DNA of 52,486 nt, taken from NCBI GenBank assembly GCA_043820925.1, contig JBDRDL010000057.1, positions 1-52,486 on the forward strand, given 5' to 3'. The notes under the pieces were generated by a model. It saw only the letters and a program-made list of their open reading frames with translations. It ran no database searches and was not told where the DNA came from. Source of the DNA: Methanobacteriota archaeon. GTDB lineage: Archaea; Hydrothermarchaeota; Hydrothermarchaeia; Hydrothermarchaeales; JACRDW01. Numbering within the stretch: position 1 is the stretch's first letter; each line of letters starts with the position of its first letter. This document shows, in pieces, positions 30,981 to 46,052 of the stretch. Made by a program: the position numbers and the translations under genes.

Positions 30981-33194
30981 ATGACCGAAGAAAATCTTGA
31001 ACGTCGAAGCACGCTTTCCAAGATTCGAAAGAGAGACGGCAGGATAGCCGAGTTCGACCAGAAGAAAATTACGAATGCAATATACAGGGCATTGCTTGCA
31101 ACGCAGGATGTGGAGCACCAGAAATCGCAGGCTACCTTAACTGGTGTGCCCTACCCAAAAGAGGTTTCGCTCAGCAAACTCGCAAAAGAATTGTCTGGCA
31201 AGGTTGTAGCTGTACTGGAGTACCAGTTCGACAGCAAGAGCGTTCCGACTGTTGAAGAAGTTCAGGATGTCGTTGAAAGAGTTCTAATAAAGAACGATTT
31301 GGCTGAAACCGCAAAAGCTTACATCCTTTACAGACACCAGCGCAAGAAAATCAGAGAAATAAAATCCACTTTCGTTGATGTTCAAAATACAATGAGCGAG
31401 TACTTGAACCAGACTGACTGGAGAGTCAGAGAAAACAGCAACGAGGATTACTCCTTCTCAGGATTGATGCTGCACGTCTCTGGAAAAGTCATTGCAAATT
31501 ATGTGCTGAACGAGATTTACACGCCTGCTATCGCAGAGGCTCACAAAAAAGGATACATACATCTACATGATTTGGGGCACGGCGTCGTGGGCTACTGCGC
31601 AGGCTGGTCTCTGAAAAACTTGCTTGTTAGAGGCTTCGGGAACGTTCCAAATAAAGTGGATACAAAGCCTGCGAAGCATCTCGACGTGGTAATCTCGCAG
31701 ATGGTGAACTACATGGGCTGCTTGCAAATGGAGTTTGCAGGTGCGCAGGCTTTCTCTTCAGTAGATACCCTGCTTGCACCCTTCGTAAAGGCTGACAGTC
31801 TAACTTACAGGCAGGTGAAGCAGAACTTACAGCGCCTGGTCTTTTCTCTGAACATTCCTTCGAGGTGGGGCTGCCAGATGCCCTTCACAAATTTAACTTT
31901 CGACTGGACAGTGCCCGAGGACATGAAGAACGAGAGAGCAATCGTAGGCGGCATGGAGCAAAATTTTACTTACGGCGACTGCCAGGCTGAGATGGACATG
32001 ATAAACAAGGCATTCCTGGAAATTATGAGAGACGGCGATGCAAATGGCAGGATATTTACCTTTCCGATACCCACTTACAATCTGACCAAGGATTTCGACT
32101 GGGACAGCGAAAATGCAAACCTGCTTTTCGAAGTTACCGCAAAGTACGGCACGCCCTACTTCCAGAACTACATAGGAAGCGAGTTAGACCCGAAGAGCAT
32201 CAGGGCGATGTGCTGCAGGTTAAACTTAAATCTGAACGAGCTCGTAAGGAGACCAGGTCACGTTTTTGCAGCAGGAGACAGCACGGGCAGCATAGGCGTG
32301 GTAACCATCAACATGAACAGGCTCGGCTATGAATCCAAAACGAAAGAAGAGTTCTTCGAAAGATTACAGCGCTACATGATTCTGGCAGAGGATTCTCTTG
32401 AGATAAAAAGGAAGGTCATAGAGAAGAACCTGCAGAACGGCTTAATGCCCTACACGAAGTCTTACCTGGGAACTTTCAGAAATCACTTCTCCACGATTGG
32501 TCTCTGCGGAATGAACGAGGCATGCCTGAATTTCTTGGGAAAGAGTATTGCAGCGCAGGAAGGAAAAGCATTTGTAATTGAAACGCTGCTTTTCATGAGA
32601 GACCTCATAAGAGAATTCCAGAGAGAAACTGGCAACCTGTACAATCTAGAAGCAACGCCCGCAGAATCTACTGCGTACAGATTCGGAAAGTTAGACAAGG
32701 AACTCTACCCTGATATAATAACTGCGGGCGGGGATACCCCCTACCTGACAAACTCGACACACCTGCCCGTCAATTATACTGACGATGCAATAGAAGCAAT
32801 AGAACACCAGAACGATGTACAGCCCCTTTATACCGGAGGAACAATCTTCCATACCTTCATGGGTGAAAGAATGAGCGGCGCAGAGAGCTGTAGGACTTTG
32901 GTTAAGAGAATAGCGCACAACACCAAGATACCATACTTTACGATAACCCCTACTTTTAGCGTGTGCAGAACTCACGGCTACATAAAAGGCGAACAGCTGC
33001 GCTGCCCTGAATGCGGCTCTGAAACAGAGATTTACTCCAGAATTGTAGGATACTTCAGACCTGTGAAAAACTGGAACAGGGGCAAAAAGGAAGAGTTCAG
33101 AGAAAGGTTGGAATACGAAGAATCCAAGACTCTGAGCCACAGCCTCGAGAGGGAAATTATTGCGGAGCACAAGTTAGTGAGCGTTGCTACTTAA
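30981..33194 (+). CDS. nrdD: anaerobic ribonucleoside-triphosphate reductase (class III)
   Basis: It has an ATP-cone (KIRKRDGRIAEFDQKKI), the thiyl-Cys finger loop SIRAMCCRLNL, a C-terminal Zn ribbon (CRTHG..CPECG) and the glycyl radical motif SRIVGYFRP. The start at 30981 has a GGAGGG SD. Confidence 0.9.
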   Translation: MTEENLERRSTLSKIRKRDGRIAEFDQKKITNAIYRALLATQDVEHQKSQATLTGVPYPKEVSLSKLAKELSGKVVAVLEYQFDSKSVPTVEEVQDVVERVLIKNDLAETAKAYILYRHQRKKIREIKSTFVDVQNTMSEYLNQTDWRVRENSNEDYSFSGLMLHVSGKVIANYVLNEIYTPAIAEAHKKGYIHLHDLGHGVVGYCAGWSLKNLLVRGFGNVPNKVDTKPAKHLDVVISQMVNYMGCLQMEFAGAQAFSSVDTLLAPFVKADSLTYRQVKQNLQRLVFSLNIPSRWGCQMPFTNLTFDWTVPEDMKNERAIVGGMEQNFTYGDCQAEMDMINKAFLEIMRDGDANGRIFTFPIPTYNLTKDFDWDSENANLLFEVTAKYGTPYFQNYIGSELDPKSIRAMCCRLNLNLNELVRRPGHVFAAGDSTGSIGVVTINMNRLGYESKTKEEFFERLQRYMILAEDSLEIKRKVIEKNLQNGLMPYTKSYLGTFRNHFSTIGLCGMNEACLNFLGKSIAAQEGKAFVIETLLFMRDLIREFQRETGNLYNLEATPAESTAYRFGKLDKELYPDIITAGGDTPYLTNSTHLPVNYTDDAIEAIEHQNDVQPLYTGGTIFHTFMGERMSGAESCRTLVKRIAHNTKIPYFTITPTFSVCRTHGYIKGEQLRCPECGSETEIYSRIVGYFRPVKNWNRGKKEEFRERLEYEESKTLSHSLEREIIAEHKLVSVAT

Positions 33195-33891
33195 TATGCT
33201 AATAAAAGGCTTAGTTAAGACTACATTAATAGACTATCCCGGAAAAGTTGCATGTACTGTTTTTCTCGCCAAGTGCAACTTCCGCTGCCCCTACTGCCAG
33301 AATCCTGATTTAGTCGTTGGCTACGGGGAGCTTCCTACGATTTCTGAAGAGGAAATCTTCGGGCATTTAAAATCCAGGAAAAAGTGGCTCGACGGAGTAT
33401 GCGTTTCTGGAGGCGAGCCGACGCTGAACAGCGACCTGCCTGAATTCTTGCGGAAGATAAAGAGCATGGGCTTTTTAATCAAGCTCGACACAAACGGAAC
33501 AAATCCAGAAATGCTGAAAAAGCTGCTGGATGAGAAACTGATAGACTATGCTGCGATGGACATTAAAGCTCCGCTGGAGAGATATGAAGAAGTAGTAAGA
33601 GTAAGAGTAGACCTGGAGAAAATCAAGCAAAGTGTGGAAATTATTCGAAACAGCGGTGTTGACTACGAATTTCGCACAACCGTTGTTCCTGGCTTGTTGA
33701 ACAGCGGGGATATTGAAAAAATTTGCAGCTGGCTGCGAGGCTCCAAGCGCTACTACCTGCAGCAGTTCAGGTCAGATATAACTCTGGACGCTTCGTTCAG
33801 AAAAGTTGCGCCGTACAAACCCGAGGAAATGCTTAAGTGCTACGAAGTAGCAAAGAATAATTTTGAGGTATGCGAGGTGAGGGGGATATGA
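33184..33891 (+). CDS. nrdG: anaerobic RNR activating radical SAM protein
   Basis: It has the CNFRCPYCQN cluster motif and GGEPTL. It overlaps the nrdD 3' end by 11 nt. Confidence 0.85.
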   Translation: MLLNMLIKGLVKTTLIDYPGKVACTVFLAKCNFRCPYCQNPDLVVGYGELPTISEEEIFGHLKSRKKWLDGVCVSGGEPTLNSDLPEFLRKIKSMGFLIKLDTNGTNPEMLKKLLDEKLIDYAAMDIKAPLERYEEVVRVRVDLEKIKQSVEIIRNSGVDYEFRTTVVPGLLNSGDIEKICSWLRGSKRYYLQQFRSDITLDASFRKVAPYKPEEMLKCYEVAKNNFEVCEVRGI

Positions 33892-33934
33892 CACAGTTGT
33901 TATATTCAATTCCGCCGCCTTGTATAGTAAAAAT

Positions 33935-34426
33935 ATGATTATCCAACTAATTTCAATTTTTATCGGTCTTGTAATCTTGGGATTCTTCTTAAATTGGCTT
34001 GACTATAGATTTATGAAAAACATATATTTAAACTCTAAGAGATTTGACCTAAATATTTGTTGTGGTAATACGGCGTGTGAGGGAATTAATGCTGACATTG
34101 TCGAAAGAGATGTCCCACGTTTTGTGTTAATTAGAAATATATACAAACTACCATTTAAGAATAAAAAATTTAAAAATACAATATGTTCTCACGCAATGGA
34201 ACATGTCGAAGATCCCGTAAAATTCTTTAGAGAACTTAAAAGAGTAAGTAAGAATGTGACTGTTTTGGTGCCTCCTCTATGGGATTTTGGTTGTATGATC
34301 AATATTTTGGAACATAGACGACAATTTTTAACATTTGCATCCAAACATAAAAATAAGTTACCAAAATTTTTTAACTTACCCTTTAGTAAAACTATTCAAG
34401 ATAGATTTGGACAGAAAATCTTATAA
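33935..34426 (+). CDS. class I SAM-dependent methyltransferase-like protein with N-terminal TM helix
   Basis: The gene is AT-rich. The translation MIIQLISIFIGLVILGFFL is followed by a Methyltransf_11-like core (DLNICCG, LPFKNKKFKNTICSHAMEHVEDP, RVSKNVTVLVP). The track ORF starts at a TTG at 33920. Confidence 0.55.
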   Translation: MIIQLISIFIGLVILGFFLNWLDYRFMKNIYLNSKRFDLNICCGNTACEGINADIVERDVPRFVLIRNIYKLPFKNKKFKNTICSHAMEHVEDPVKFFRELKRVSKNVTVLVPPLWDFGCMINILEHRRQFLTFASKHKNKLPKFFNLPFSKTIQDRFGQKIL

Positions 34427-34505
34427 AATAATTAATTCATCAACAATAAGCTAAGAGGACCAATAGCCCAAAAATAATTATACTTTATTAACCGAGTAAA
34501 TAAGT

Positions 34506-36590
34506 ATGGGAATTTCTCAGATACGCAAAAGGGACGGGCGCATCGTCGCTTTTGAACCGCAGAAGATTGCAGATGCAATTCACAAAGCGATTGCTGCGGT
34601 CGGCGAGAGCGACGGCGAGGTTGCAGAGAAGCTCTCGAATGAAGTGGTTGGAATACTTGAGAAGAAATTCCCAAAAGCAATGCTGGGCGTCGAGGACGTG
34701 CAGGACATCGTCGAGGAAGTTCTGATTAAAAACGGATATGCAAAGGTCGTAAAGGCTTACATTCTCTACCGCCAGAGGCGCACAGAGCTCAGAGAAGCAA
34801 AAAAATTCCTCGGCGTAACCGATGAGCTGAAGCTGGGAGTAAATGCGGCAAGGGTGCTGGAGAGGAGATACCTGCTGAAAAACGAGAGAGGAGAAATCAT
34901 CGAAACGCCTGCACAGATGTTCAGGAGAGTTGCGCTTGCTGTCGCAAATGTGGATTTGCTCTACAATAAAAAAGCGAAGACAGAAGAAGAATTTTACAGC
35001 ATAATGGCGAATCTTGAATTTCTTCCAAATTCTCCGACGCTCATGAATGCAGGAACAGAACTGGGGCAGCTCGCTGCATGCTTCGTCCTGCCGGTCGAAG
35101 ATTCTGTGAAGAGTATATTTGAAGCGCTTAAGTCAATGGCGCTTATACATCAAAGCGGTGGTGGAACCGGCTTTTCCTTCTCAAAGCTTAGACCAAGAGG
35201 CGATATCGTCAAGTCAACGAAAGGCGTTGCTTCTGGACCTGTATCCTTTATGCGAATTTTTGATGTTGCAACCGAGGTGATAAAGCAGGGGGGCAGGAGG
35301 AGGGGAGCTAACATGGGCATCCTTCGGGTTGATCACCCGGATATAACTGAGTTCATAACAGCGAAAGAAAAGGAAGGCTTTCTTGCGAACTTTAACGTCT
35401 CTGTTGGCATTACCGATGAGTTCATGAGAGCCGTGGGGAAAAATGAGGACTGGGATTTGATAAACCCGAGGACAGGAAAAGCTGAAAAGAGATTTAGGGC
35501 GAAAGATATCTTCGACTTAATCGTTACAATGGCATGGCGCACCGGTGACCCCGGGTTAATATTCCTCGACGAGATAAACCGCCACAATCCAACGCCGCAG
35601 GCTGGAAAAATAGAGAGCACTAATCCCTGCGGTGAAATTCCTCTCCTGCCCTATGAGTCCTGCAACCTGGGCAGCATAAACCTCTCGAAGATGGTGAAGA
35701 ATGGTGAGATGGACTGGGGGAAACTGAAAAAAGTTGCAAGAACTGCAGTGCACTTCTTAGACAACGTTATCGACGCCAATAAATATCCACTGCCCGAGAT
35801 AGAGAAAGCAGCAAAGGCGAACAGAAAAATAGGTCTCGGCGTAATGGGCTTTGCGGACATGCTCCTGAAGCTGAAAATACCCTATGACTCAGACAAAGCT
35901 CTCGCAATTGCAGAGAAAGTTATGAAATTCATAAGCGAAGAGGCTAAGAAAAAATCAATAGAGATTGCTCAAGCGCGCGGCTCCTTTCCGAATTTTGAAA
36001 GCAGTACCTTGAGAAAAAAATTCAGCGACATGAGAAATGCAACCGTTACGAGCATTGCACCCACGGGTACGATAAGCATAATCGCAGGCGCAAGCAGCGG
36101 TATAGAGCCTATTTTCGCTATCTCATTTATGCGCAACGTGATGGGAACGCAGCTGCTGGAAGTTAATCCGATTTTCGAAGCCATTGCGAAAGAAAGAGGA
36201 TTTTACAGCACGGATTTAATGATAGAAATCGCAAAGATGGGTTCGATTCAAAACATGAAAGGAATTCCGGAAGATGTTCGAAGGGTGTTTGTCACTGCTC
36301 TGGACATAGCTCCAGAATGGCACGTTAAAATGCAGGCAGCCTTTCAGAAACACGTGGACAATGCGGTTGCAAAGACTGTTAACCTGCCTCACAGCGCTAC
36401 CATGGAAGATGTGAGAAAAATATTCCTGCTGGCTTATAAGCTGAGATGCAAGGGCACGACGATATATCGCTACGGAAGCAAGAGCGAGCAGGTGCTTTAC
36501 GTGGGCGGACTGACGAAAGGCGATAAAGGAGGAGTAATTGCAAACTCGGAATATGCAGGTGGATGCCCGAGCGGCGTGTGCGAGTTGTGA
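34506..36590 (+). CDS. nrdJ: adenosylcobalamin-dependent ribonucleotide reductase (class II)
   Basis: It has an ATP-cone (QIRKRDGRIVAFEPQKI), SGGGTGFSFS, the catalytic NPCGEIPL and a C-terminal Cys pair (GGCPSGVC). Confidence 0.9.
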   Translation: MGISQIRKRDGRIVAFEPQKIADAIHKAIAAVGESDGEVAEKLSNEVVGILEKKFPKAMLGVEDVQDIVEEVLIKNGYAKVVKAYILYRQRRTELREAKKFLGVTDELKLGVNAARVLERRYLLKNERGEIIETPAQMFRRVALAVANVDLLYNKKAKTEEEFYSIMANLEFLPNSPTLMNAGTELGQLAACFVLPVEDSVKSIFEALKSMALIHQSGGGTGFSFSKLRPRGDIVKSTKGVASGPVSFMRIFDVATEVIKQGGRRRGANMGILRVDHPDITEFITAKEKEGFLANFNVSVGITDEFMRAVGKNEDWDLINPRTGKAEKRFRAKDIFDLIVTMAWRTGDPGLIFLDEINRHNPTPQAGKIESTNPCGEIPLLPYESCNLGSINLSKMVKNGEMDWGKLKKVARTAVHFLDNVIDANKYPLPEIEKAAKANRKIGLGVMGFADMLLKLKIPYDSDKALAIAEKVMKFISEEAKKKSIEIAQARGSFPNFESSTLRKKFSDMRNATVTSIAPTGTISIIAGASSGIEPIFAISFMRNVMGTQLLEVNPIFEAIAKERGFYSTDLMIEIAKMGSIQNMKGIPEDVRRVFVTALDIAPEWHVKMQAAFQKHVDNAVAKTVNLPHSATMEDVRKIFLLAYKLRCKGTTIYRYGSKSEQVLYVGGLTKGDKGGVIANSEYAGGCPSGVCEL

Positions 36591-36594
36591 TTTT

Positions 36595-37122
36595 ATGAGC
36601 GAGAAGCGGGGCAATATTCATCTCTACACCGGCGAGGGCGAGGGGAAAACTATTACTGCTTTTGGTCTTGCACTGCGTGCTCTGGGTCATGGGCATAAAG
36701 TCGTTATAATTCAATTCATGAAGGGTCGCAAGGATATTGGTGAGTACAGGGTAAAGAAGAGGCTTTCTCCAGAATACGAGATTCACCAGTTCGGCAGGAA
36801 AGAATTCATAGATTTAAAAAATCCTGAGCCGGTGGATTTTGAATTGGCGAGGAAAGGTCTGGAATTTGCGAAAAAAGCTCTCAAGAAAAAAACAGACCTT
36901 TTAATTCTGGACGAGATAAACCTCGCAGTCGCTTTCAAATTAATAAAACTTGAAGAAGTTTTGAAATTCTTGAATAATGTTCCAAAAAATACTACTGTCG
37001 TTCTAACAGGGCGCAGAGCTCCCAGAGAGCTGATAGAACGCGCGGATTTGGTTACTGAAATGAAAGAAATAAAACATCCTATGAAGAAGGGGGTGCCTGC
37101 GAGGAAGGGAATAGAATATTAA
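36595..37122 (+). CDS. cobO: cob(I)yrinic acid a,c-diamide / cob(I)alamin adenosyltransferase (CobA/CobO/BtuR family)
   Basis: From the ATG at 36595 the translation is IHLYTGEGEGKTITAFGLALRALGHGHKVVIIQFMKG..LDEIN. It starts 5 nt after the nrdJ stop. Confidence 0.85.
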   Translation: MSEKRGNIHLYTGEGEGKTITAFGLALRALGHGHKVVIIQFMKGRKDIGEYRVKKRLSPEYEIHQFGRKEFIDLKNPEPVDFELARKGLEFAKKALKKKTDLLILDEINLAVAFKLIKLEEVLKFLNNVPKNTTVVLTGRRAPRELIERADLVTEMKEIKHPMKKGVPARKGIEY

Positions 37123-37177: not shown

Positions 37178-37255
37178 TTGGTTAGTTATTTTTATATTTT
37201 TTAATATTTAAGTTAACAAATTCTTTCCGAAAGATTTTTAAATACTTAAATATAA
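37178..37255 (+). promoter_or_regulatory. promoter module of the nrdD-like gene resembling the nrdD/lrp intergenic module (30819-30885)
   Basis: TTGGTT-AGTTATTTTTATATTTTTT..AGTTAACAAATTCTTTCCGAAAGA aligns with TTGGTTTAGTATCTTATATATTTTT..GGTTAATAAAATCTTTTAGAAAAC. Two blocks give 14/18 and 17/24 matches by eye with similar spacing. It includes the palindrome TCTTTCCGAAAGA. Confidence 0.35.
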
Positions 37256-37310: not shown

Positions 37311-39281
37311 ATGGCTGCATCAAAATCCGGGGTGAGAGTGGTAAAATCTTCGGGAGATATAGAAACCTTCGAGCCTAACGTAATAAGTAGGGACTGCGTT
37401 GAGGCAGGAATCGACTTCTACACGAGTGCCGAGGTTGCGAGCGAGGTAGCTAAGCGGATATACGACAGGATAAGCACCAGAGACATTCAGGCAATGATGC
37501 TGGAAATTCTTTACAAAAAGCATCCAGAGGCAGCTGAGCGCTACAAGCGATTCCACAGCGTTCAGGTCAGGACCTCAAGGAATACGATAGAAAATTTCGA
37601 CAGAAAGAAGATAACTGCCTCTCTGGTGAGAGAAACCAGACTGCCCAAAGAGCTTGCGGAAACAATTGCAAGAGAGAGCGAGGCTGAGCTCCGAACGTTA
37701 AAGCTCGACTTCGTTTCTGCGCCGCTGATAAGAGAGGTTGTTAACGTAAAACTTCTGGAGCACGGGTTTGAAGACGCCAGGGCAGACTACACAAGGCTCG
37801 GGATGCCTGTATATGATGCCACTCAAATAATAGAGGTTGGCTCGAAAGAAAATGCTGTGCTGCAAAATCCTGAAAGCCTGCATGCATTAATGGCAGGCAA
37901 TATATTCAAGGAATATGCGCTGCTGAAGATTCTGCCCCTGCACCTTGCGGATGCGCACATGCGGGGCGAAATACACATCCATGACTTGGATTATTTCGCA
38001 ACCAGACCCTGCTCTGCGAGGCACGACCTGAGATGGGTGCTGAGGAATGGTCTGAAAATAGGAACGGTTAAAGCTGCTCCTGCGAAAAGCCTAGAAATGG
38101 CTGTGCTGCAAGCTGCGAAGTTTCTTGAGGTTGCAAGTACGAATTTCTCAAGAGAACAAAGTTTTGATTTTTTCAACGTATATCTTGCTCCGTATATGCA
38201 AGTTGAGTATGGGCGCATAAAACAAATTGCGCAGATTTACATACACGAAAGTCAAAGCGTGCTGAGAAGGAATCAAAAAATCTTTCTGGAGTACGGCTGC
38301 CCAAAAAGTTTGAGCGAGACTGCGGCTGTGCTGCCGGGTGGAGAGGTTAAGAAGAGCGTTACCTACTCGAACTTCGAGGAGGAGGCGAGAAATTTTGCAA
38401 AGGCTCTGGCAGAAATTTATCTGGAGGGAGACCACACAGGAAAACCTTTCTACAATCCAAGGGCATATTATATCCTGAGAAAGGAAAATAAAGAAGGCTA
38501 TGAGGAATTTCTGCTTCTGGTGCATAAAATCGCTGCAAAGTTTAGTACCGCTTATTTTTTAAATCTGCATTCATATGCTGAATCAAACGAAAAGGGCAGC
38601 CTGCAGATTGTAACCCTAAACCTGCCGAGAATAGCGTACGAAGCAGGGGGCGATGATACTAAGTTCTATGAAAAGCTGGACGAGCGCCTTAACATGGCTA
38701 GGGAAGCAATAATGATTAAGAGAGATGTAATAAAGCACAGGATGGAGCAGGGCTTGCTTCCGTTTTTGACGCAGGAATCTGAAGGCGAGGAGTACTATCG
38801 CTTGGACGAGACCTCGCATTCAATAGCATACATAGGCGCCGGTGAGATGGTTAAGGCACATACCGGCGAGGAAATGCATGAAAGCGAGGATGCGCTTAAA
38901 TTTGGATTGAGGGTTATTAAGTACATTTATGAGACCACGCAGAAGTGGTCCCGGGATTCAGGACTGAACTGGGTTGTTACCCAAGCTCAAAGCGAATCCG
39001 CTGCTTCCAGGTTAGCTAAGTCAGATTACGGAAAATTCAGCGGAAATGTGGTTTTGCGCAGAGTTGGGAAGGACCTGCGCTACGAATTCTCGCATATCAA
39101 AAGCGATGCAGACGTTGCGATGCAGAGGAGGCTACAGCTCGAGGGAGCGTTCCATGCTTTCACTAGCAACGCTGTTGCGAATATAGCTGTAAAAGATCCC
39201 ACGCCAGAAACTCTGCTTGACCTGAGCATGCAAATTGTTAATACTCCAATCAGAGCCTGGACCTACAAAGAGGTTAAATAA
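37311..39281 (+). CDS. NrdD-like protein with two N-terminal ATP-cones, lacking the catalytic Cys loop and glycyl-radical domain (probable pseudoenzyme)
   Basis: It is clearly homologous to the nrdD in this window (ADAHMRGEIHIHDLDY.. versus AEAHKKGYIHLHDLGH..; LQIVTLNLPRIAY versus IGVVTINMNRLGY). About 25 aa including AMCCRL are absent, and the protein ends at ..TPIRAWTYKEVK, where nrdD continues into the Zn ribbon and RIVGY. I start it at the ATG at 37311 (GGAG SD). Confidence 0.75.
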   Translation: MAASKSGVRVVKSSGDIETFEPNVISRDCVEAGIDFYTSAEVASEVAKRIYDRISTRDIQAMMLEILYKKHPEAAERYKRFHSVQVRTSRNTIENFDRKKITASLVRETRLPKELAETIARESEAELRTLKLDFVSAPLIREVVNVKLLEHGFEDARADYTRLGMPVYDATQIIEVGSKENAVLQNPESLHALMAGNIFKEYALLKILPLHLADAHMRGEIHIHDLDYFATRPCSARHDLRWVLRNGLKIGTVKAAPAKSLEMAVLQAAKFLEVASTNFSREQSFDFFNVYLAPYMQVEYGRIKQIAQIYIHESQSVLRRNQKIFLEYGCPKSLSETAAVLPGGEVKKSVTYSNFEEEARNFAKALAEIYLEGDHTGKPFYNPRAYYILRKENKEGYEEFLLLVHKIAAKFSTAYFLNLHSYAESNEKGSLQIVTLNLPRIAYEAGGDDTKFYEKLDERLNMAREAIMIKRDVIKHRMEQGLLPFLTQESEGEEYYRLDETSHSIAYIGAGEMVKAHTGEEMHESEDALKFGLRVIKYIYETTQKWSRDSGLNWVVTQAQSESAASRLAKSDYGKFSGNVVLRRVGKDLRYEFSHIKSDADVAMQRRLQLEGAFHAFTSNAVANIAVKDPTPETLLDLSMQIVNTPIRAWTYKEVK

Positions 39282-39646
39282 TGCTCGTGGATATGCTTCT
39301 CGACGTAAACATACCAAAAAAGGTGAAGAAGATGAACAGCGGGAGAAGAGTCCTCCACATAGGCGACATAGACACGTGCATGGACGATGAGGATATCCTG
39401 CACATAGTGAGTAAATTTAAATGCCTGCTTGTTACCCACGACAGGAGTCTTGCGCTCAGGGCCGCAAAAAAGTACAGGACGCTGTTCATCAAGGAGCCGA
39501 TAGCCGCTGAAGACATAATCTTATGTCTGGAAAAGAACAACGAACTCTTAAAAACTGCAAGCATATTCTGCGAAAACGGCATTGAATGCCGGGATTGCAA
39601 AAACATCACGTTCCTGGGTTCACCGCTCAGGAGGGAGGGTCTATAG
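39281..39646 (+). CDS. PIN-like nuclease of the DUF5615 / Mut7-C type
   Basis: 121 aa. The pattern LLDVNIP..DDEDIL..LLVTHDR matches the DUF5615/Mut7-C PIN-like layout, and there is a C-terminal CENGIECRDC Cys cluster. Its ATG overlaps the nrdD-like stop (TAATG). Confidence 0.5.
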   Translation: MLVDMLLDVNIPKKVKKMNSGRRVLHIGDIDTCMDDEDILHIVSKFKCLLVTHDRSLALRAAKKYRTLFIKEPIAAEDIILCLEKNNELLKTASIFCENGIECRDCKNITFLGSPLRREGL

Positions 39647-39730
39647 GGGAGAATTTCCACCTGCCCATTTCCACCTCCAACTCGGCTCTTTCTTTCCCCT
39701 AACCCTCCTCTTTTTTTGAGCTTTGCTCAC

Positions 39731-39932
39731 AAACAGAAGAATTCGGCGAGATATCTGAAACGGAGGTTTTCGAATCGGTACAAAGTGGAGAAGTGATAGA
39801 AGCAAGGTCTGCAACAACTGCGGCGAGCGGTACTACGATGCAGTTACTTGAGGATATAAAAGAAAAACTCATGAAAAAGAAGTTAAGTTTAGAAGTTGTT
39901 GGTAGAGTCGTGAGAATTTCCAAGGCTATCTA
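39731..39932 (+). pseudogene. fused, frameshifted remnant of a DUF4258 toxin / YgiT-type zinc-finger antitoxin pair
   Basis: 39731-39805 aligns to 43085-43160 (EEFGEISE.EVF.SVQSGEVIE). 39806-39932 aligns to the 3' half of 43324-43560 (CN.CGERYYD..MQLLE..KKL.LEVVG.V) with internal deletions. Confidence 0.6.
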
Positions 39933-40010
39933 GTACAACCTCATGCTCTCCCTGAGTCTCGTCAGGCTCTCGTTTTCCTCCGGTTTTCTGACAACAAAAT
40001 AGATATAACT
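39930..40010 (-). pseudogene. methyltransferase 3'-end remnant, copy 1
   Basis: It translates to ..YIYFVVRKPEENESLTRLRESMRLY*, homologous to the tails at 42068-42123, 42829-42960 and 43566-43703. No methyltransferase body is attached. Confidence 0.5.
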
Positions 40011-40030
40011 GGTTACTAACATACTAACCC

Positions 40031-40483
40031 ATGACCAAGGTGTACTTGGATACTTGTGTGTGGGGCAGACCGTTCGATGACCAGAACGACAAAAAGATAC
40101 TCGAAGAAACAGCGGCATATTTTGAAATCGCGTGGAAAATAGATTCTAGAGAAATAGAAGTCGTTAGCTCAGAAGTTCTTTTTGCAGAGTTGGAAGATAT
40201 TTCTGATGAAAATCTGAGAGAAAAGGTTAAACTGCTCGTAACAAAGGCAGTTTCCTATGTAGTGAAACTTGACAACGAAATCAGAGAAGTTGCCATAGAG
40301 CTTGAGAAAAAATGCAAATGCTTTGGTACCGATGCCCTACACATCGCTGCCGCAATCTCTGGGCGCGCTGATTTTTTTGTGACCACTGACTATGAGCTGC
40401 TCAAAAAAAGAGAATGCATAAAACAAAAATTCAATATCGATGTTATAAATCCTGTTAACTTTGTGAGGAACTTGTATGGGTGA
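40031..40483 (+). CDS. PIN-domain protein (VapC-like toxin)
   Basis: 150 aa with VYLDTCVW, FAELEDIS, DALHIAAA and FVTTDYEL, the PIN acidic residue contexts. Confidence 0.7.
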   Translation: MTKVYLDTCVWGRPFDDQNDKKILEETAAYFEIAWKIDSREIEVVSSEVLFAELEDISDENLREKVKLLVTKAVSYVVKLDNEIREVAIELEKKCKCFGTDALHIAAAISGRADFFVTTDYELLKKRECIKQKFNIDVINPVNFVRNLYG

Positions 40484-40709
40484 AGCGGTTTTAAACGATA
40501 AAAAGCTTGTGAAAAAAGCTTTCGGCCTGCTTGAAAAAGAGATGAACCTTGTAGAGTATACTAGGTTTCTACAGCTCATAACTCCAAGCAGAGGGGACTT
40601 AACAAAAGAGCTTGTAGAAAAACGTAAAAAGCTAAATGTCGATGCCGCTTACGAAAAATTCCTCAAGAGGATAAAAAAAGTAGCTACCAGCTCATGTGCA
40701 ATTAAATAA
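40476..40709 (+). CDS. small helical protein, possible cognate antitoxin encoded downstream of the PIN gene
   Basis: 77 aa. It overlaps the PIN stop by 8 nt. No family recognised. Confidence 0.4.
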   Translation: MGEAVLNDKKLVKKAFGLLEKEMNLVEYTRFLQLITPSRGDLTKELVEKRKKLNVDAAYEKFLKRIKKVATSSCAIK

Positions 40710-40806
40710 AAATCGTATTTACCGCGCCACTTCTCCCTCGTGGATTTCATCTTCCACTGCCTCTAAAATCATAAGAAATATTTTTAAAGTTAAAAGGACG
40801 TTAGTA

Positions 40807-40995
40807 ATGCGTGGAAGAAACATTATTAAAAGAGATTATTACCAGCTTGACAGGCTGGACGAAAAAGTAACTAATTTTATGGGATTCTTTGATCTACCCC
40901 TGAAGGAGAAAGCAGACCTGAAGGAGGATATAGAGGCTTATAGGAAGGGGAAGCTGGACGTAGTCGCTCTAGAAGAGGCAGAGAAGCTTGTTTAG
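40807..40995 (+). CDS. small antitoxin-like protein upstream of a decayed relE
   Basis: From the ATG at 40807 it encodes 62 aa (MRGRNIIKRDYYQLDRLDEKV..GKLDVVALEEAEKLV). Its 3' end overlaps the relE-like start. Confidence 0.4.
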   Translation: MRGRNIIKRDYYQLDRLDEKVTNFMGFFDLPLKEKADLKEDIEAYRKGKLDVVALEEAEKLV

Positions 40996-41244
40996 TGTCG
41001 TTGTGAAGAAGGCTGCCCTAAAAGAGATTAAGAAAGAAACCAGGGGAACGAAAAATAGGATTTTTGATTCGCTGAAGAAACTTGAGAATCCATTCGCTAT
41101 ACCTTACGAGAAACTCAGGGGAAGGAGAACGTTTACCGTATAAGAGTTGGAGACTTCAGGGTTATTTATTATGTAGACAAGGACAAAAACGAGGTTGTGG
41201 TTTTCAGAATAAGAAGGAGAGGCAGAGCATACAAGGGGTTGTGA
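40988..41244 (+). pseudogene. RelE/ParE-family toxin gene disrupted by a frameshift
   Basis: Frame A reads (M)FSVVVKKAALKEIKKE..LENPFAIPYEKLRGRRTFTV*. A second frame continues YRIRVGDFRVIYYVDKDKNEVVVFRIRRRGRAYKGL*, the canonical RelE C-terminus. The shift lies in the GGGGAAGGAGAA run near 41118-41130. Confidence 0.65.
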
Positions 41245-41257
41245 AACGAAGTGCGTC

Positions 41258-41476
41258 GTGTGTAAAAGCTTGGACATTGTTGAAAAAGAAGTGGAGGAAG
41301 AGATTAAAGTAAACAGCGACATCGCTCTTTATCCTGTGAAAGTCAAGGTCTGCAACAGCTGCGGCGAGCGTTACTACGACAGAATAGCTGTGCTCTCCTC
41401 TTTCGCTGGTTTTCTAATTCCAAACAATAATATAAACGTTAATGTTCATTTTTTAATTAGGTGTAAAAATGGCTAG
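41258..41476 (+). pseudogene. truncated YgiT-type zinc-finger antitoxin paralog
   Basis: I estimate about 88% nt identity to 43330-43465. The ATG is replaced by ACG (the first Cys of the CxxC is lost if the GTG at 41258 is used). The sequence diverges after ..CGERYYDR into a short methylase-tail fragment (41402-41428). Confidence 0.6.
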
Positions 41477-41675
41477 GATTGTAATCGATATTCCAAATAG
41501 AGTAATTGACAATCTGGGGGAGACAGCAATCGTTGAAAGCATAAAGGACTTTCTTATTAACCAATACGAAGTTCCTAAATTTGAAATCACTGTTAGAAAA
41601 ATAAAAAGAGCACCTTCATTGAGATTCAAGATAGAAAAAAAATTGGGGGACTGGAAGCTCATTGATCGAGTTTGA
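41469..41675 (+). CDS. small RHH/CopG-like protein
   Basis: 68 aa. MARIVIDIPNRVIDNLGE resembles the N-terminal beta strand of ribbon-helix-helix antitoxins. It overlaps the next ORF by 14 nt. Confidence 0.4.
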   Translation: MARIVIDIPNRVIDNLGETAIVESIKDFLINQYEVPKFEITVRKIKRAPSLRFKIEKKLGDWKLIDRV

Positions 41676-42066
41676 TTACGTCAAAGGCGATGGAACGCCG
41701 GACATTCCAGTAATTCGTATTTCGTTGAGAATTGGTACGAAGAAAATCGGTGGGCAAGCTATTGTTGATACTGGTTTCGACGGCGGCATTTACCCGAATT
41801 CTATTCTTGCCGGATTTTTATTAGGACTCCGCCCAGTAGGAAGAGAATTTCTGGAAGGCGTTAGTGGCGAGGTTGAATGCGATGTCTTTGAGTTAGATGC
41901 CGAATTATTTTATCCCAGCGAAGGTGCTAAGAAGAGTATAGGAACCGCAAAAATATACCTCCCTCTTGACAAAGAAAATTTGACTCAAGATGTTGTAGTA
42001 GGAAGAGAAATATTGAACAACTTAGATATCCGGCTGAACGGCAAAGTAGTTAGGATTTACGACTGA
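41662..42066 (+). CDS. retropepsin-like (clan AA) aspartyl protease
   Basis: 134 aa with the active-site context AIVDTGFDGG and the C-terminal GREILNNL block typical of single-domain retropepsin-like proteases. Confidence 0.65.
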   Translation: MIEFDYVKGDGTPDIPVIRISLRIGTKKIGGQAIVDTGFDGGIYPNSILAGFLLGLRPVGREFLEGVSGEVECDVFELDAELFYPSEGAKKSIGTAKIYLPLDKENLTQDVVVGREILNNLDIRLNGKVVRIYD

Positions 42067-42067
42067 G

Positions 42068-42123
42068 CTACCACCTCATGCTCTCCTTGAATTTTGTTAA
42101 GCTCTCGTCTTTTTCTGCTTCTC
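42068..42123 (-). pseudogene. methyltransferase 3'-end remnant, copy 2
   Basis: It translates to ..EAEKDESLTKFKESMRW*. Its DNA aligns with 39933-39990. Confidence 0.5.
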
Positions 42124-42360
42124 TCAAGTTGTATGATACCCAAATATTCTATCGTATTGCTTGTGGTCAACAAGGTCCAAAATAAAAGAAATCACTTCTA
42201 CTTCTGAACTAACAATTGTGTATATCATCCTCCAATCGCTACTTACGTTTAGCTTCCATAGATTGTCAAATTCAATGCCATACTTATTGCGGTAATAATT
42301 AAAAGCGGCTGGATGTTTTTTTCTTGAAATATGGGCACCGAACTTATAGTTCCACTTCAA
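42124..42360 (-). CDS. RelE/ParE-superfamily toxin-like protein
   Basis: 78 aa with a TTG start. LWKLNVSSDWRMIYTI..EVISFILDLVDHKQYDRIFG matches the RelE/YafQ-type pattern (W-R-x-I-Y .. DH..Y). Confidence 0.6.
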   Translation of the reverse strand: MKWNYKFGAHISRKKHPAAFNYYRNKYGIEFDNLWKLNVSSDWRMIYTIVSSEVEVISFILDLVDHKQYDRIFGYHTT

Positions 42361-42440
42361 ACGTTCGATTCCTCTTCTTCTATTTCCTTTCTACGAGCTA
42401 TAACTTTATCGAGTAATCTGACTTTATACATATATCGCAT
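42357..42440 (-). CDS. 27-aa ORF overlapping the toxin start, possible minimal antitoxin
   Basis: An ATG at 42440 gives MRYMYKVRLLDKVIARRKEIEEEESNV*. The TGA overlaps the TTG start of the toxin. It is very short, so confidence is low. Confidence 0.2.
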   Translation of the reverse strand: MRYMYKVRLLDKVIARRKEIEEEESNV

Positions 42441-42555
42441 TCTACGGAATCATGAAAATAAATACCTTTAGAATGGCTCGGCGAAGTAAAATTATATATA
42501 TTAATATAATAAATGTTGCAAATGTTATATAAATTTATATAATTGTAGGTGAAAA

Positions 42556-42828
42556 ATGAGCACGCCCACCACTAAAATTGAGAAGATACATTATCCGCAG
42601 CTTAACACCATCCTCATGATAGAGAATGCCATCAAGCAGCATGACGGGGAGTATACCGTTACCCAACTGTGGAGAAAATTGGAGAAGAGCGTAATGTACC
42701 AGACCTACAAAACTGCAATTGATTACCTGATTGATTCAAGAAAAGTTATAATCAAGAACAAAAAACTTGTCTGGATTTTCAACCCAGAACTAATGGATAA
42801 ACTAATGGCTAGAAGCGAAGAAGTATAG
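42556..42828 (+). CDS. small winged-helix-like hypothetical protein
   Basis: 90 aa on AT-rich sequence. It is divergent from the RelE-like gene across an AT-rich spacer. Confidence 0.45.
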   Translation: MSTPTTKIEKIHYPQLNTILMIENAIKQHDGEYTVTQLWRKLEKSVMYQTYKTAIDYLIDSRKVIIKNKKLVWIFNPELMDKLMARSEEV

Positions 42829-42960
42829 TCAAAATTTCATACGCTCCCTAAATTTTGCTACATTTTCCTCTCTGCCCGGCTTTCTGAAGACATACAAATG
42901 CTCGTGGGCGATGAGATAAAAGTCGTACTTGCTGCCTCGCCACTTCTCCTTCGTTGAACC
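42829..42960 (-). pseudogene. methyltransferase 3'-end remnant, copy 3
   Basis: It translates to ..KEKWRGSKYDFYLIAHEHLYVFRKPGREENVAKFRERMKF*. The HE[HY]-hydrophobic-VF-[RK]K block near the C-terminus is typical of small DNA/RNA methyltransferases. No catalytic domain lies upstream. Confidence 0.55.
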
Positions 42961-43009
42961 GATTTTTGCCAGAATAAACTTTATTTGCACCAAAATAGCA
43001 TTTTCTCTT

Positions 43010-43327
43010 GTGTTAGAAAAAATCAAAAAGTGTTTCGTAGAAGACAGAGCGCTGTACACGAAACACGCCAAGATAGAAATGGAAACAGAAGAATTCGGCG
43101 AGATATCCGAAAAGGAGGTTTTCCAATCGGTACAAAGCGGTGAAGTAATAGAGGAATATCCAGATGCAGAGCCCTACCCATGCTGCCTGATTTACGGAAG
43201 AACCAAAAGCAACAGACCGATACACTCCGTCTGCGCGTACTCTGCCGAAGACGACCTTGCAATCGTGGTAACAGTTTATGAGCCAGATGTTAAAAAATGG
43301 ATTGATTACAGGAGAAAGGTAAAATGA
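43010..43327 (+). CDS. DUF4258-domain toxin-like protein
   Basis: From the GTG at 43010 the translation is LEKIKKCFVEDRALYTKHAKIEM..ISEKEV..GEVIEEYPD..PCCLIYG..RPIHSVCAY, the DUF4258 pattern. It overlaps the zinc-finger partner by 4 nt. Confidence 0.6.
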   Translation: MLEKIKKCFVEDRALYTKHAKIEMETEEFGEISEKEVFQSVQSGEVIEEYPDAEPYPCCLIYGRTKSNRPIHSVCAYSAEDDLAIVVTVYEPDVKKWIDYRRKVK

Positions 43328-43560
43328 AGTGTGTCGTGTGTAAGAGTTCAGACATTGTTGAAAAAGAAGTCGAAGAAGAAATCAAATTAAATAGCGACAT
43401 CGCTCTTTATCCCGTTAAAGTCAAAGTCTGCAACAGCTGCGGCGAGCGGTACTACGACAGAAAGACGATGCAGCTGCTGGAAGGTGTCAAAAATAAACTA
43501 AAACAGAAAAAATTAAGGCTGGAAGTCGTTGGGAAGGTTCTGAGGGTTTTGGCGGCTTGA
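43324..43560 (+). CDS. YgiT-type zinc-finger (MqsA N-terminal-like) antitoxin
   Basis: 78 aa with CVVCKS..CNSCGERYYD (CxxC-x32-CxxC). It is the only intact copy of three in the window. Confidence 0.7.
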   Translation: MKCVVCKSSDIVEKEVEEEIKLNSDIALYPVKVKVCNSCGERYYDRKTMQLLEGVKNKLKQKKLRLEVVGKVLRVLAA

Positions 43561-43565
43561 GCGTT

Positions 43566-43703
43566 TTACTATTTTTGTGCTCTCGCCTTTCTCTGGTTTT
43601 CTGAAAACATATAAGTGCTCGTGTGCTATGAGATAAAAATTATAGCTCTTGCCCCTCCACATTTCACGCATGGATTTCAGAATCTCAGGAGAGATGAATT
43701 CTC
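43566..43703 (-). pseudogene. methyltransferase 3'-end remnant, copy 4
   Basis: It translates to EFISPEILKSMREMWRGKSYNFYLIAHEHLYVFRKPEKGES.., and the natural stop is lost. It lies between the zinc-finger gene and the last gene of the AT-rich operon. Confidence 0.5.
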
Positions 43704-43762
43704 TCTAACAAAATCATTCGACTGAACGTGAGACAACAACTTCTAAAGGCTGAAAAATGATT

Positions 43763-44521
43763 TTACTTTAAAGCGAGTAGTTGATTACCAAACTTTTTTT
43801 CGATATATATTCCACCTCTATCGGTTAATCTTATTACCTCGCCCCTATGAATATACCTTTCTTTTTCGGCTCTTTCGCATAATACATGGATATTGGAATA
43901 ATGAACTTGTTTTTTTAAGTAAGCAGTTGATTTTCCTTCAGGATTAACGTAGAGAATGAGCAACAATTCATCCAATGGTTTAATTTTAGGGTCAAGAACC
44001 AAAGTATCTTCGCCAATTTTCTGGACAAGCGGAATTTCTCTCTTTAGTAAATCATTAATAATTACTTCAATTTCTCTTTGGGGTTTTATATGAGTACCTA
44101 TTCTGATAAATTCTGCTATTATCCACTTTGCTGTTTTAACGATAAGGGAAGTATCAATGTAATTAGGATCTACCTCTGATTTATGAACCAACCCTCTTTT
44201 GCTCCTTATGGTTTGAGTCGCAAAAAGCAATCGAGGAATAATAAGCCTTATTGATTCGGGAAGTTGCGATTCATTTTCAATCTTCTTCATAGTTTCGTTA
44301 AGGTTAATCTTATTAGCATCAGGTATTTTGCTCCATGCTAATAAATGAAGGATCTGGATAGAAGTCTCTACAAACTTAGTGTATTCACCTCCAACGTCTT
44401 CGTAACGGCCCAACCTAAAACGTTGTAATATATTTAAAAAATGTTTTGCTAGTTCTGACGCTAACTTTTCGTTATTTATAGTCTCATTTAATAGATCTCT
44501 TAGGTCTTCTAAACTACCCAT
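43763..44521 (-). CDS. hypothetical protein P4: helical HEPN/DUF4145-like N-domain plus C-terminal winged-helix domain
   Basis: 252 aa on AT-rich sequence. It has a single R-x6-H string (RSKRGLVH) in a helical N-domain. The C-terminal segment LLLILYVNPEGKSTAYLKK..ERYIHRGEVIRLTDRGGIYIEKK looks like a wHTH. Both assignments are weak. Confidence 0.6.
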   Translation of the reverse strand: MGSLEDLRDLLNETINNEKLASELAKHFLNILQRFRLGRYEDVGGEYTKFVETSIQILHLLAWSKIPDANKINLNETMKKIENESQLPESIRLIIPRLLFATQTIRSKRGLVHKSEVDPNYIDTSLIVKTAKWIIAEFIRIGTHIKPQREIEVIINDLLKREIPLVQKIGEDTLVLDPKIKPLDELLLILYVNPEGKSTAYLKKQVHYSNIHVLCERAEKERYIHRGEVIRLTDRGGIYIEKKFGNQLLALK

Positions 44522-44569
44522 TAACTGATACCCCTTTACTTAAAACATAAGCATAAAGACATATTCATT

Positions 44570-45070
44570 CTAAGCACTGGCCAATTCTCTTATTATCTCT
44601 AACCCTTTCTTCTTACCTGGCAAAGTTATTTTATAGCAGAAGTTAGGACTTCCTGGTTCTCCTTTTGGAACAATAAAATTAGCAAATTTGGCTAAGTTCG
44701 TGCTAAGATTATTTAATGATGAGATGCCCAACTTTTCTAATTTTTTCCTAAGTATTTTGGATTCTATAATGTCTTTTCCATAGCAATAATCCAAGGCAGT
44801 AAGAATACAAATAGTCGCCCTGCATTGCTTTTCTGCTTCGTTACCTTCTATTGCAGCGATGAGGTTCAAATCTTCCTCTTCAAAATCAAAAACGTGCTTT
44901 AGTTGCTCTTCAGTAATGCCCGCATCTGCAGCAAGTTTTTTTATTCCTTGATCTAAGCTTACCTCTACTGGTTTTAATTGTCCTCCTTTTGCTAATGCTT
45001 CTAATTCTTTTATTCTATCGTCATGTTTTTTAAGAATTTTAAATATCTCATCTATTTTTTGCTCTATCAT
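44570..45070 (-). CDS. hypothetical protein P3: coiled N-terminus shared with P2, C-terminal winged-helix-like domain
   Basis: The ATG at 45070 forms an ATGA overlap with the P2 stop. The N-terminus KIDEIFKILKKHDDRIKELE parallels P2 SIDINKILENHEKRLSKIEE. The C-terminus is ILRKKLEKLGISSLNNLSTNLAKF..YKITLPGKKKG. Confidence 0.6.
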   Translation of the reverse strand: MIEQKIDEIFKILKKHDDRIKELEALAKGGQLKPVEVSLDQGIKKLAADAGITEEQLKHVFDFEEEDLNLIAAIEGNEAEKQCRATICILTALDYCYGKDIIESKILRKKLEKLGISSLNNLSTNLAKFANFIVPKGEPGSPNFCYKITLPGKKKGLEIIRELASA

Positions 45071-45399
45071 TTTCTCACCACATACTTCCAACCATTTCCT
45101 TCCTTAACCCTTGTCAATATTTTCTTTTTTTGCATAAAGTTAACACTTAATAATTTATCCGTGGATTTGGAAGGATAATGATACCCCTCTCTTGTCAATT
45201 CGTTTTGGATTTCGTTAACAGATTTGGGCGTATTAAGAAATCCATTATCTATTAAAAGTCTAATACCGCCACTCAGTCCAGTGTAGTCTGCGGGTTTTGA
45301 AACTTTCACTTTCTTAGAGAAAATAACCTCTTCAATTTTAGAAAGTCTTTTTTCATGGTTTTCTAAAATTTTATTAATGTCAATAGATTTCTCTTCCAT
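45067..45399 (-). CDS. hypothetical protein P2: paralog of P1 (C-domain) and P3 (N-segment)
   Basis: 110 aa. The C-domain GFLNTPKSVNEIQNELTREGYHYPSKS..KKKILTRVKEGNGWKYV aligns with P1 GFFDKPKSLVEIKNALEEQGYYYPITT..KKNLGRIKQDKRWLYV. Confidence 0.6.
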   Translation of the reverse strand: MEEKSIDINKILENHEKRLSKIEEVIFSKKVKVSKPADYTGLSGGIRLLIDNGFLNTPKSVNEIQNELTREGYHYPSKSTDKLLSVNFMQKKKILTRVKEGNGWKYVVRK

Positions 45400-45403
45400 T
45401 CCC

Positions 45404-45778: not shown

Positions 45779-45794
45779 TCACCTTTTAATAATG

Positions 45795-45824
45795 TGATAA
45801 TATGATAATGTAATATATAAACTT
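45795..45824 (-). promoter_or_regulatory. candidate promoter/operator of the P1-P4 operon
   Basis: On the minus strand, TTTATATATT (45815-45824) is followed by the direct repeat ATTATCA-T-ATTATCA (45795-45809), 17-31 nt upstream of the P1 ATG. Confidence 0.4.
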
Positions 45825-46052
45825 TTTGGTTATTCTTTACACCAAAACCTTTAATAGACAAGTGAATGTTTATAGGAAGCATACACCTTCAAAGGGGCCA
45901 AGATAGTAGGAAGATATACATACGCACTGACGGCAAAAAGGAAATATCCAAATCTCGGAGAAGGATTACCTAAACAAGGGCTTCAAAAGTTTCGTCTTAA
46001 CAATAATCCTTTCAATCGATAATATTTTAATAACAAAAAGTTAGAAAAGGAG

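Follow-up and report, generated by a model that had tools for sequence, protein, structure and literature searches.

The 52,486-nt contig JBDRDL010000057.1 from a Methanobacteriota archaeon of the Hydrothermarchaeota lineage (the window, by which we mean this whole stretch of DNA) carries on its forward strand, at 37311–39281, the gene for a 656-residue protein that we call pseudo-NrdD. As judged from its sequence, this protein is a class III ribonucleotide reductase (RNR) catalytic subunit that was inactivated long ago; Pfam NRDD homology, alignments, an AlphaFold2 (AF2) model and the ratio of nonsynonymous to synonymous substitution (dN/dS) all contribute to this assignment. It is followed by an overlapping gene for a 121-residue PIN-like protein. 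Our preferred reading, to which we give a probability of about one half, is that pseudo-NrdD is a non-catalytic, cone-based component of the control of deoxynucleoside triphosphate (dNTP) supply, with the PIN-like protein as its partner. The pair itself is best read as a housekeeping part of the RNR locus belonging to the syntenic core genome, and not as the toxin–antitoxin (TA) or defence module that an earlier sequence-only reading of this DNA had favoured. Below, L-numbers denote compared loci and P-numbers homologous proteins.

The barrel of pseudo-NrdD aligns with that of the window's own NrdD (30924–33194) with 25% identity in a pairwise alignment, and the protein matches Pfam NRDD (PF13597) with 281 bits, residues 181–637 covering profile positions 4–489 of 562; the last ∼70 positions of the profile are missing. 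The AF2 model has a predicted local distance difference test (pLDDT) score of 84 and is matched by Foldseek to the NrdD structures 9d3x, 8p2c and 4coj (probability 1.0, template-modelling (TM) scores of 0.6–0.75). The score against the NCBIfam equivalog TIGR02487 is 295.7, under the cut-off of 326.35, compared with 588.4 for a live relative from L012. The gene callers give a 673-residue form that starts at an in-frame ATG at 37260; we prefer 37311, which is the equivalent of the start methionine of the relatives and has a GGAG 7 nt upstream of its ATG.

The functional elements of the class III enzymes were mapped using the NrdD proteins of P. copri (PMC11226230) and T. maritima (PMC4493059). 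The finger loop is deleted at 38559–38591 (forward strand), around residues 417–427, where the alignment gap falls between FLNLHS and YAESNEKG; the gap is of ∼29 residues and faces AMCCRL in the window's NrdD and AQCCRL in the live relatives, so that the thiyl cysteine is gone. The alignment stops ahead of the CxxC..CxxC zinc ribbon and the RIVGY glycyl-radical region. The βA cysteine is one position out of register (TRPCSARHD in pseudo-NrdD, TRPYCAQHD in the live relatives) and is missing from most proteins of the dead clade described below. The HxHD triphosphate motif is kept (HIHD, residues 222–225), with its aspartate varying across the dead clade. The NxN flap reads ENANLQ in the live relatives and ENAVLQ in pseudo-NrdD, and most dead proteins either lack it or vary at this site. 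The s-site hairpin is shortened and poorly conserved; the degeneration of these two elements indicates that the machinery coupling the cone to catalysis has decayed. A tblastn search with the finger loop and the zinc-ribbon/glycyl C-terminus of the live relatives matched only the window's real NrdD and nothing downstream of pseudo-NrdD, and a frameshift or split gene was ruled out, as no remnant of the missing elements was found near the gene. The sequence-only reading had proposed the alignment over the barrel, the absence of the thiyl-cysteine loop, the zinc ribbon and RIVGY, and the consequent loss of function, and all of these points are borne out: with all catalytic elements lost, pseudo-NrdD is predicted to be unable to carry out class III chemistry.

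The two ATP-cones noticed in that reading are also present. Scanned separately, and against a gathering score of 25.8 bits for the Pfam ATP-cone family (PF03477), cone 1 (37335–37544, forward strand; residues 9–78) scores 31.3 bits, with Lys12 retained and KSSG in place of the canonical KRDG, and cone 2 (37563–37793, forward strand; residues 85–161) scores 36.0 bits and carries the subfamily motif VRTSRNTIE.FDRKKI ... NVKLLEHG. The double cone had been listed as one of the features that set the protein apart from NrdD, and in this it is not peculiar to the dead form: the live relatives have two cones as well, which makes this an ancestral trait of the subfamily.

The search for homologues gave more than 2000 matches, and the catalytic signatures were scored in the top 120. 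Live proteins with all three signatures (TRP[YF]C, the QCC finger loop and the zinc ribbon with RITGYYQ) account for 56 of these 120 and dead ones for 61; in 31 of the dead proteins the loop is kept with its cysteines replaced by serine or glycine, in 30 it is deleted, and almost all of the 61 have lost the C-terminal domain as well. In a neighbour-joining (NJ) tree, which may be affected by long-branch attraction, the dead proteins group in a single large clade on long branches, within the live 761-residue NrdDs of Hydrothermarchaeota. P0017, which has lost its Cys residues and kept the zinc ribbon, is basal in this clade, and the tree holds at least two separate recent inactivations (P0013 and P0016).

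When the gene is compared with those of three close relatives (83–91% identical), the dN/dS of pseudo-NrdD is 0.10–0.20, against 0.06–0.11 for NrdJ, CobO and ABCE1/RLI; pseudo-NrdD is under purifying selection and is not a pseudogene. The selection is concentrated on the ATP-cones, with the barrel relaxed: in the dead clade cone 1 has a mean identity to the consensus of 0.71–0.74 and cone 2 one of 0.84, as against 0.44–0.62 for the barrel and C-terminus, which is the opposite of the pattern in the live proteins. The start of the core (its first ∼50 residues, ∼191–240) is conserved along with the cones. Over 16 loci, the mean pairwise distances are 0.39 for the cones, 0.47 for the small PIN-like protein, 0.57 for AsnC and 0.99 for the core. 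The idea that we are looking at the decaying relic of a redundant NrdD on its way to loss has in its favour the graded decay (P0017 with its zinc ribbon, others with a cysteine-less loop, others with neither), the relaxed barrel and the other RNRs at the locus, and is scarcely credible given the intact open reading frames (ORFs) of 640–700 residues across ∼60 divergent sequences, the low dN/dS, cones that are more conserved than in the live enzymes and the same outcome reached independently in other phyla.

Dead NrdDs were found in several such phyla. In Altiarchaeota and relatives (L060–L072, L102) they lack the finger loop, and have RDTGH in place of RITGY, and in eight loci the gene for the repair factor Nre (PF04894/PF04895) comes directly after them, often overlapping. 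In the DPANN Undinarchaeales/UBA55 (L078–L080) the dead gene is followed by two NrdJ genes. Further examples come from Methanomethylicota, Bathyarchaeia and the Asgard Jord-, Frey- and Atabeyarchaeia (L075, L076, L081, L094–L106); these TACK/Asgard genes are positioned after an HMG-CoA synthase/thiolase/DUF35 operon and, in Methanomethylicota and Asgard, near NAC and PAN. In an NJ tree the dead NrdDs of the other phyla make up at least two further clades distinct from that of Hydrothermarchaeota, and dead NrdDs thus appear to have arisen independently in Altiarchaeota/DPANN and in TACK/Asgard. In each of the three dead clades conservation is highest in cone 2 (0.77–0.85), a result biased by the GTDB scan itself, which used the alignment of the dead clade and retrieval patterns that lie in cone 2; residues 191–240 are likewise held. 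Cone 2 of the window is 51–57% identical to those of the dead proteins of other phyla, and the cores are 23–36% identical. No small PIN-like gene was found in the dead clades of the other phyla.

The junction of the two genes in the window (39270–39283, forward strand) was read from the sequence: GAGG, which resembles a Shine–Dalgarno sequence and stands 7 nt upstream of the ATG of the small gene, at 39270–39273, TAA at 39279–39281 and ATG at 39281–39283, giving the TAATG overlap described in the sequence-only reading. Overlaps of 1–4 nt are also found at this junction in L001–L005, L010, L015, L021 and L026. Upstream of the pair, the live RNR genes, identified with Pfam, occupy 30924–37122 on the forward strand and encode NrdD, NrdG, a methyltransferase-like ORF, the class II enzyme NrdJ and the adenosyltransferase CobO; the live NrdD belongs to a different clade and is 23% identical to pseudo-NrdD. 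Before them, on the reverse strand, is a divergent AsnC/Lrp-type regulator gene (30179–30718), recognized by the NCBIfam Lrp/AsnC models and found at a syntenic position ahead of the NrdD-like operon in almost every locus. The live RNR genes stand in identical order between AsnC and the dead pair in L001 and L019, and five close relatives share the order NrdJ–CobO–dead NrdD–small gene with the last two genes overlapping.

More distant loci simplify this arrangement. L010, in which the dead protein is 51% identical, has AsnC and then NrdJ–CobO–dead NrdD–small gene with a 4-nt overlap; P0051-type loci have AsnC and then only dead NrdD and the small gene; the P0017 locus has AsnC, dead NrdD, a 57-residue ORF, the small gene and, further on, ThyX. 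Loci with live members have AsnC followed by NrdD, a thioredoxin (Trx)-like gene, NrdG and the small gene, again with ThyX further on, the small gene coming directly after NrdG. When GTDB genomes were searched for the small protein, 14 loci were recovered, all from Hydrothermarchaeota. The small gene is the last of an NrdD-like operon in 12 of these loci; of the remaining two, one is at a contig edge and in the other (L029) the small gene is alone behind AsnC. The linkage of NrdD-like genes to the PIN-like gene is thus conserved, in all close relatives as well as in these loci. The comparison points to an ancestral operon of AsnC and NrdD (with two cones)–Trx–NrdG–small gene, with the small gene terminal. 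Since the small gene is already last in the live operon, its linkage to NrdD predates the death of NrdD, and we take the linkage of dead NrdD and small gene to be real, old and inherited from the live operon.

The small gene (39281–39646, forward strand) encodes a protein of DUF5615/Mut7-C type with invariant Asp8, Asp29, Asp36 and Asp54 and Cys82, Cys97, Cys103 and Cys106. The protein from the window scores 23.0 bits against DUF5615, just under the gathering score of 23.8; among its orthologues 52 of 54 match DUF5615 (best E-value 2e-8) and 38 of 54 match Mut7-C. The description that fits it best is a PIN-like protein of a minimal Mut7-C/DUF5615 type, in which the acidic site is apparently intact and the four-cysteine site probably binds zinc; by homology, we infer that it is a nuclease. 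Its orthologues are 57–89% identical where the companion NrdD-like proteins share just 45–57%, a conservation about equal to that of ABCE1/RLI, and its dN/dS is 0.08–0.26. A word-indexed search returned 93 clusters, all of them at least 57% identical, all from Hydrothermarchaeota-type metagenome-assembled genomes (MAGs) and with no distant relatives among them. A HMMER profile run exhaustively against 1.84 billion representative proteins gave only four matches, one of which is a generic DUF5615-like sequence that aligns at the LD(E/V)(H/N)IP, SD.EI and VT.D motifs; these searches provided no fresh clue to function. The AF2 model of the small protein (pLDDT 81.5) is an α/β sandwich. The gene is single-copy, confined to one phylum and vertically inherited.

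Between CobO and pseudo-NrdD there is a 188-bp spacer that is conserved well past the synonymous divergence of the flanking genes, even in L010. It holds an operator-like element (37212–37234, forward strand): a 21-nt motif, GTTAANAAANTCTTTNNGAAA, at 37212–37232, which encloses the perfect palindrome TCTTTCCGAAAGA. An AT-rich, TATA-like stretch comes directly after the motif. The motif has exactly two copies in the window, this one and another at 30854–30874, upstream of the live nrdD–nrdG genes and beside the AsnC/Lrp gene, and L001 carries it at both corresponding positions. The conserved spacer and the motif fit a separate promoter that would be co-regulated with the real RNR genes, and GTTAANAAANTCTTTNNGAAA may serve the neighbouring AsnC/Lrp regulator as an operator; because the pattern was defined after both sites had been seen, the shared motif is no more than suggestive. 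An Rfam scan of the whole window at gathering thresholds gave no RNA elements and no tRNAs were found.

Taken together, these observations allow a scheme to be drawn for the cone-based control of dNTP supply that we prefer. In the lineage of the window, Trx and NrdG of the ancestral operon would have been lost and the second NrdD with its NrdG, and NrdJ/CobO, inserted upstream, with dead NrdD and the small gene surviving as a unit of their own, presumably co-transcribed and translationally coupled behind the conserved, motif-bearing spacer. The cones would bind ATP or dATP and thereby alter how the pseudoenzyme oligomerizes or binds, which would couple the adenine (deoxy)nucleotide status to the control of dNTP supply. 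The most likely route would be action of the co-expressed PIN-like nuclease on RNA, as a post-transcriptional counterpart of NrdR. Carried further, this becomes a more specific proposal that we regard as doubtful: that in archaea without NrdR a dead class III RNR serves as the ATP/dATP sensor and, in Hydrothermarchaeota, gates a dedicated RNase of the PIN-like type, which would modulate nrd transcripts and perhaps those of thyX. ThyX and RNR genes do neighbour the pair or its operon in related loci.

Several observations weigh against a cone-based sensor with a PIN-like partner. Both cones depart from the canonical VxKRDG (KSSG in cone 1, RTSRN in cone 2), the RTSRN form of cone 2 being found in live subfamily members too. 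The partnership of dead NrdD and small gene is not obligatory, because the P0039 lineage (L006–8/L041) has a dead NrdD without the small gene, the genome of L029/L034 has the small gene apart from its live NrdD–Trx–NrdG genes (on another contig) and three live operons (L032, L034 and L035) are without a local small gene. All of the evidence on the small gene comes from one phylum, so that synteny could partly reflect shared descent. In a mirror-tree comparison the small protein correlates at 0.62 with the cones and at 0.74 with the core, with partial correlations of 0.22 and 0.52, respectively; these values come from non-independent pairs, carry no significance test and speak neither for nor against contact between the two proteins. 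The best Foldseek match of the small-protein model in the PDB is weak (the PIN protein AF0591, PDB entry 1o4w; probability 0.97, TM-score 0.38, E-value 0.014), and the GTTAANAAANTCTTTNNGAAA pattern was defined post hoc from its two sites.

Some of these observations would be expected if the two genes were merely co-transcribed, dead NrdD being, for example, an ATP/dATP-binding regulator or buffer and the small protein an unrelated housekeeping RNA-processing nuclease, and this is a possibility that we take seriously without thinking it probable. The cones are still conserved in the P0039 lineage, the small gene remains beside AsnC without an NrdD in L029, the dead NrdDs of other phyla adjoin Nre, NrdJ or mevalonate genes and have no small gene, and conservation near that of ABCE1 suggests a universal RNA substrate. 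Set against this, the small gene is essentially confined to this operon and to the phylum that possesses it, and overlaps by 1–4 nt with whichever gene precedes it.

It seems unlikely to us that dead NrdD joins a live RNR, either NrdJ or the second NrdD, as a non-catalytic subunit that would modulate the activity or stability of that enzyme. Such a role is suggested by the position of the dead gene directly after NrdJ(–CobO) in the window and in L001–5, L006–11, L019, L022, L039, L042, L044 and L063, and by its adjoining NrdJ in DPANN and some Altiarchaeota loci. Many dead-NrdD loci, however, have no adjacent RNR (L013, L015, L021, L025, L026 and the TACK/Asgard loci), NrdJ has an ATP-cone of its own and the live NrdD of the window is just 23–25% identical to pseudo-NrdD, which makes a heterodimer unlikely.

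The sequence-only reading had preferred a TA or defence module, the pseudoenzyme neutralizing a PIN-like toxin or gating it according to the nucleotide pools. The gene order and overlap do resemble those of antitoxin–toxin pairs, DUF5615 proteins are commonly annotated as PIN-like toxins and, as that reading had observed, a TA-type island adjoins the pair. It had also observed that the usual DUF433 antitoxin is lacking, and none was found among the neighbouring ORFs scanned. The island is variable where the pair is syntenic core, and the module itself now looks very improbable. The small gene, last in the live operon, is preceded there by NrdG, not NrdD, and it persists without an adjoining NrdD in L029; it is a single-copy, vertically inherited gene, 57–89% identical across its phylum; and neither pseudo-NrdD nor the small protein matched any PADLOC model. 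A type II TA module would have a dedicated small antitoxin and be distributed patchily, as a mobile, multi-copy element; here there is no DUF433 or VapB partner, the preceding gene being a dead NrdD and, in the live operons, NrdG.

The closest relatives of pseudo-NrdD among described enzyme types are the archaeal two-cone, double-cysteine (QCC), Trx-linked NrdDs of Hydrothermarchaeota, Archaeoglobales and Altiarchaeota. It shares with them the α/β-barrel and two cones with VRTSRNT and NVKLLEHG, and also keeps HIHD, the asparagine after the loop and the position of the locus behind an AsnC-type gene; it differs in having no finger loop, no in-register βA cysteine, no zinc ribbon, no glycyl-radical motif and no activase of its own. 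NrdR, a repressor of nrd operons built from a zinc ribbon and an ATP-cone (PMC9110341, PMC12176259), resembles pseudo-NrdD in being non-catalytic, cone-built and encoded with RNR genes, and in the proposed logic that leads from ATP/dATP sensing to dNTP supply. Pseudo-NrdD differs from it in architecture, which is cone–cone–dead barrel (∼480 residues) without an N-terminal zinc ribbon, and is not a member of the NrdR family. An NrdR-like regulator of the neighbouring RNR genes, the second suggestion of the sequence-only reading, fits the context better than the toxin does; as pseudo-NrdD has no DNA-binding domain, any regulation must take another route than that of NrdR and would be post-transcriptional or act between proteins.

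The yeast protein Rnr4 is an inactive β-subunit that forms a heterodimer with its close active paralogue Rnr2 and modulates it. Like Rnr4, pseudo-NrdD is an RNR-family paralogue that was kept after the loss of catalytic or cofactor residues; unlike it, pseudo-NrdD is an α-type class III subunit and often has no close live paralogue at its locus. By analogy, its logic would be closest to that of NrdR and its precedent closest to inactive RNR subunits such as Rnr4. As for the small protein, it shares with the DUF433–DUF5615 and VapBC pairs and with Mut7-C (PF01927) the profiles that most of its orthologues match, the PIN-like acidic residues, the C-terminal four-cysteine site and the overlap with the upstream gene, and it differs from those TA pairs in having no DUF433 or VapB, in being single-copy, highly conserved and limited to one phylum, and in lying within an RNR operon. 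In full-text literature searches, incomplete in their coverage, we came across no account of dead NrdD homologues, DUF5615 or the RNR genes of Hydrothermarchaeota.

Few allosteric enzymes have been studied as thoroughly as the RNRs, whose master switch is the ATP-cone. If the cone-based reading is right, the cones and their scaffold have a function apart from radical chemistry, under which the cones are more strongly constrained than in the live enzymes, and the repeated, independent retention of dead NrdDs would reflect a second, cone-based function of the subfamily that outlives catalysis. To our knowledge most archaea have no NrdR, and pseudo-NrdD would then offer a handle on how dNTP supply is sensed and controlled in them. 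The dead NrdDs are annotated publicly as ‘anaerobic ribonucleoside-triphosphate reductase’, which inflates the anaerobic dNTP synthesis inferred for MAGs. The phylum-specific PIN-like partner, conserved like ABCE1, is an uncharacterized protein with a clear experimental entry point.

The TA-type island occupies 39647–46052 and includes a VapC-type PIN gene paired with a 77-residue ORF, a ParE-like gene and DUF4258 and MqsA-like genes. In the relatives the small gene is followed by a gene for a 167–169-residue protein, CorA and ABCE1, and in the window these resume at 46053. The island measures 6.4 kb in the window and ∼0.9 kb in L001 and L003 and is absent from L004; given these differences, and since the flanks resume, it is a variable insertion beside the conserved core pair. 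Within it, a decayed and internally deleted copy of the DUF4258/MqsA-like cassette lies immediately downstream of the small gene (39731–39838), with an intact copy at 42929–43560 and a third, partial copy at 41241–41476; the segments assigned to cassette copies are 39731–39838, 41241–41384, 43083–43152 and 43319–43462. Five copies of a ∼31-nt repeat, GCTCTCGTTTTCCTCCGGTTTTCTGAnAACA, lie where the small TA-type cassettes begin or end (39966–39996, 41392–41422, 42101–42131, 42862–42892 and 43579–43609); they are 61–84% identical and 709–1426 nt apart, an arrangement that suggests serial site-specific insertions. The possibility that GCTCTCGTTTTCCTCCGGTTTTCTGAnAACA represents the 3′ end of a DNA methyltransferase gene was dropped, as it had no Pfam support.

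Among the genes upstream of the pair, the 168-residue ORF between nrdG and nrdJ (33920–34426) has a partial match to Methyltransf_11 (residues 70–112) and a hydrophobic N-terminal segment; its equivalent in L001 has no Pfam match. In several lineages of Hydrothermarchaeota a helical mini-ORF of ∼55 residues (..EF.EYK..RL.EI....RLEKLK..WLR, ending at the stop codon) lies directly downstream of the NrdD-like gene, in dead and, weakly, in live loci. It was found at L009 7925–8092, L013 8192–8365, L022 6826–6993, L025 6781–6957, L038 4655–4822 and L042 6949–7110, with weak matches at L020 3690–3824 and L032 4634–4711; no Pfam family matches it, and the window lacks it. In Pyrohabitans-type loci an NrdG-like radical-SAM gene stands between the dead NrdD, which has no glycyl motif, and the small gene (L043 6997–7734, with equivalents in L049, L050, L051 and L053). 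Its product retains CxxxCxxC and has GCEP in place of GGEP, and is thus an activase homologue without an obvious substrate.

Inteins were seen in NrdJ and in live NrdDs. The NrdJ of L004 (321–3380) has one and that of the window does not. Live NrdDs of the Archaeoglobales type with inteins (Intein_splicing and LAGLIDADG) include P0057, P0058, P0063, P0067 and P0071 (1137–1147 residues) and L090 1979–7312 (1777 residues), and one MAG protein has an insertion just before the CC of the finger loop.

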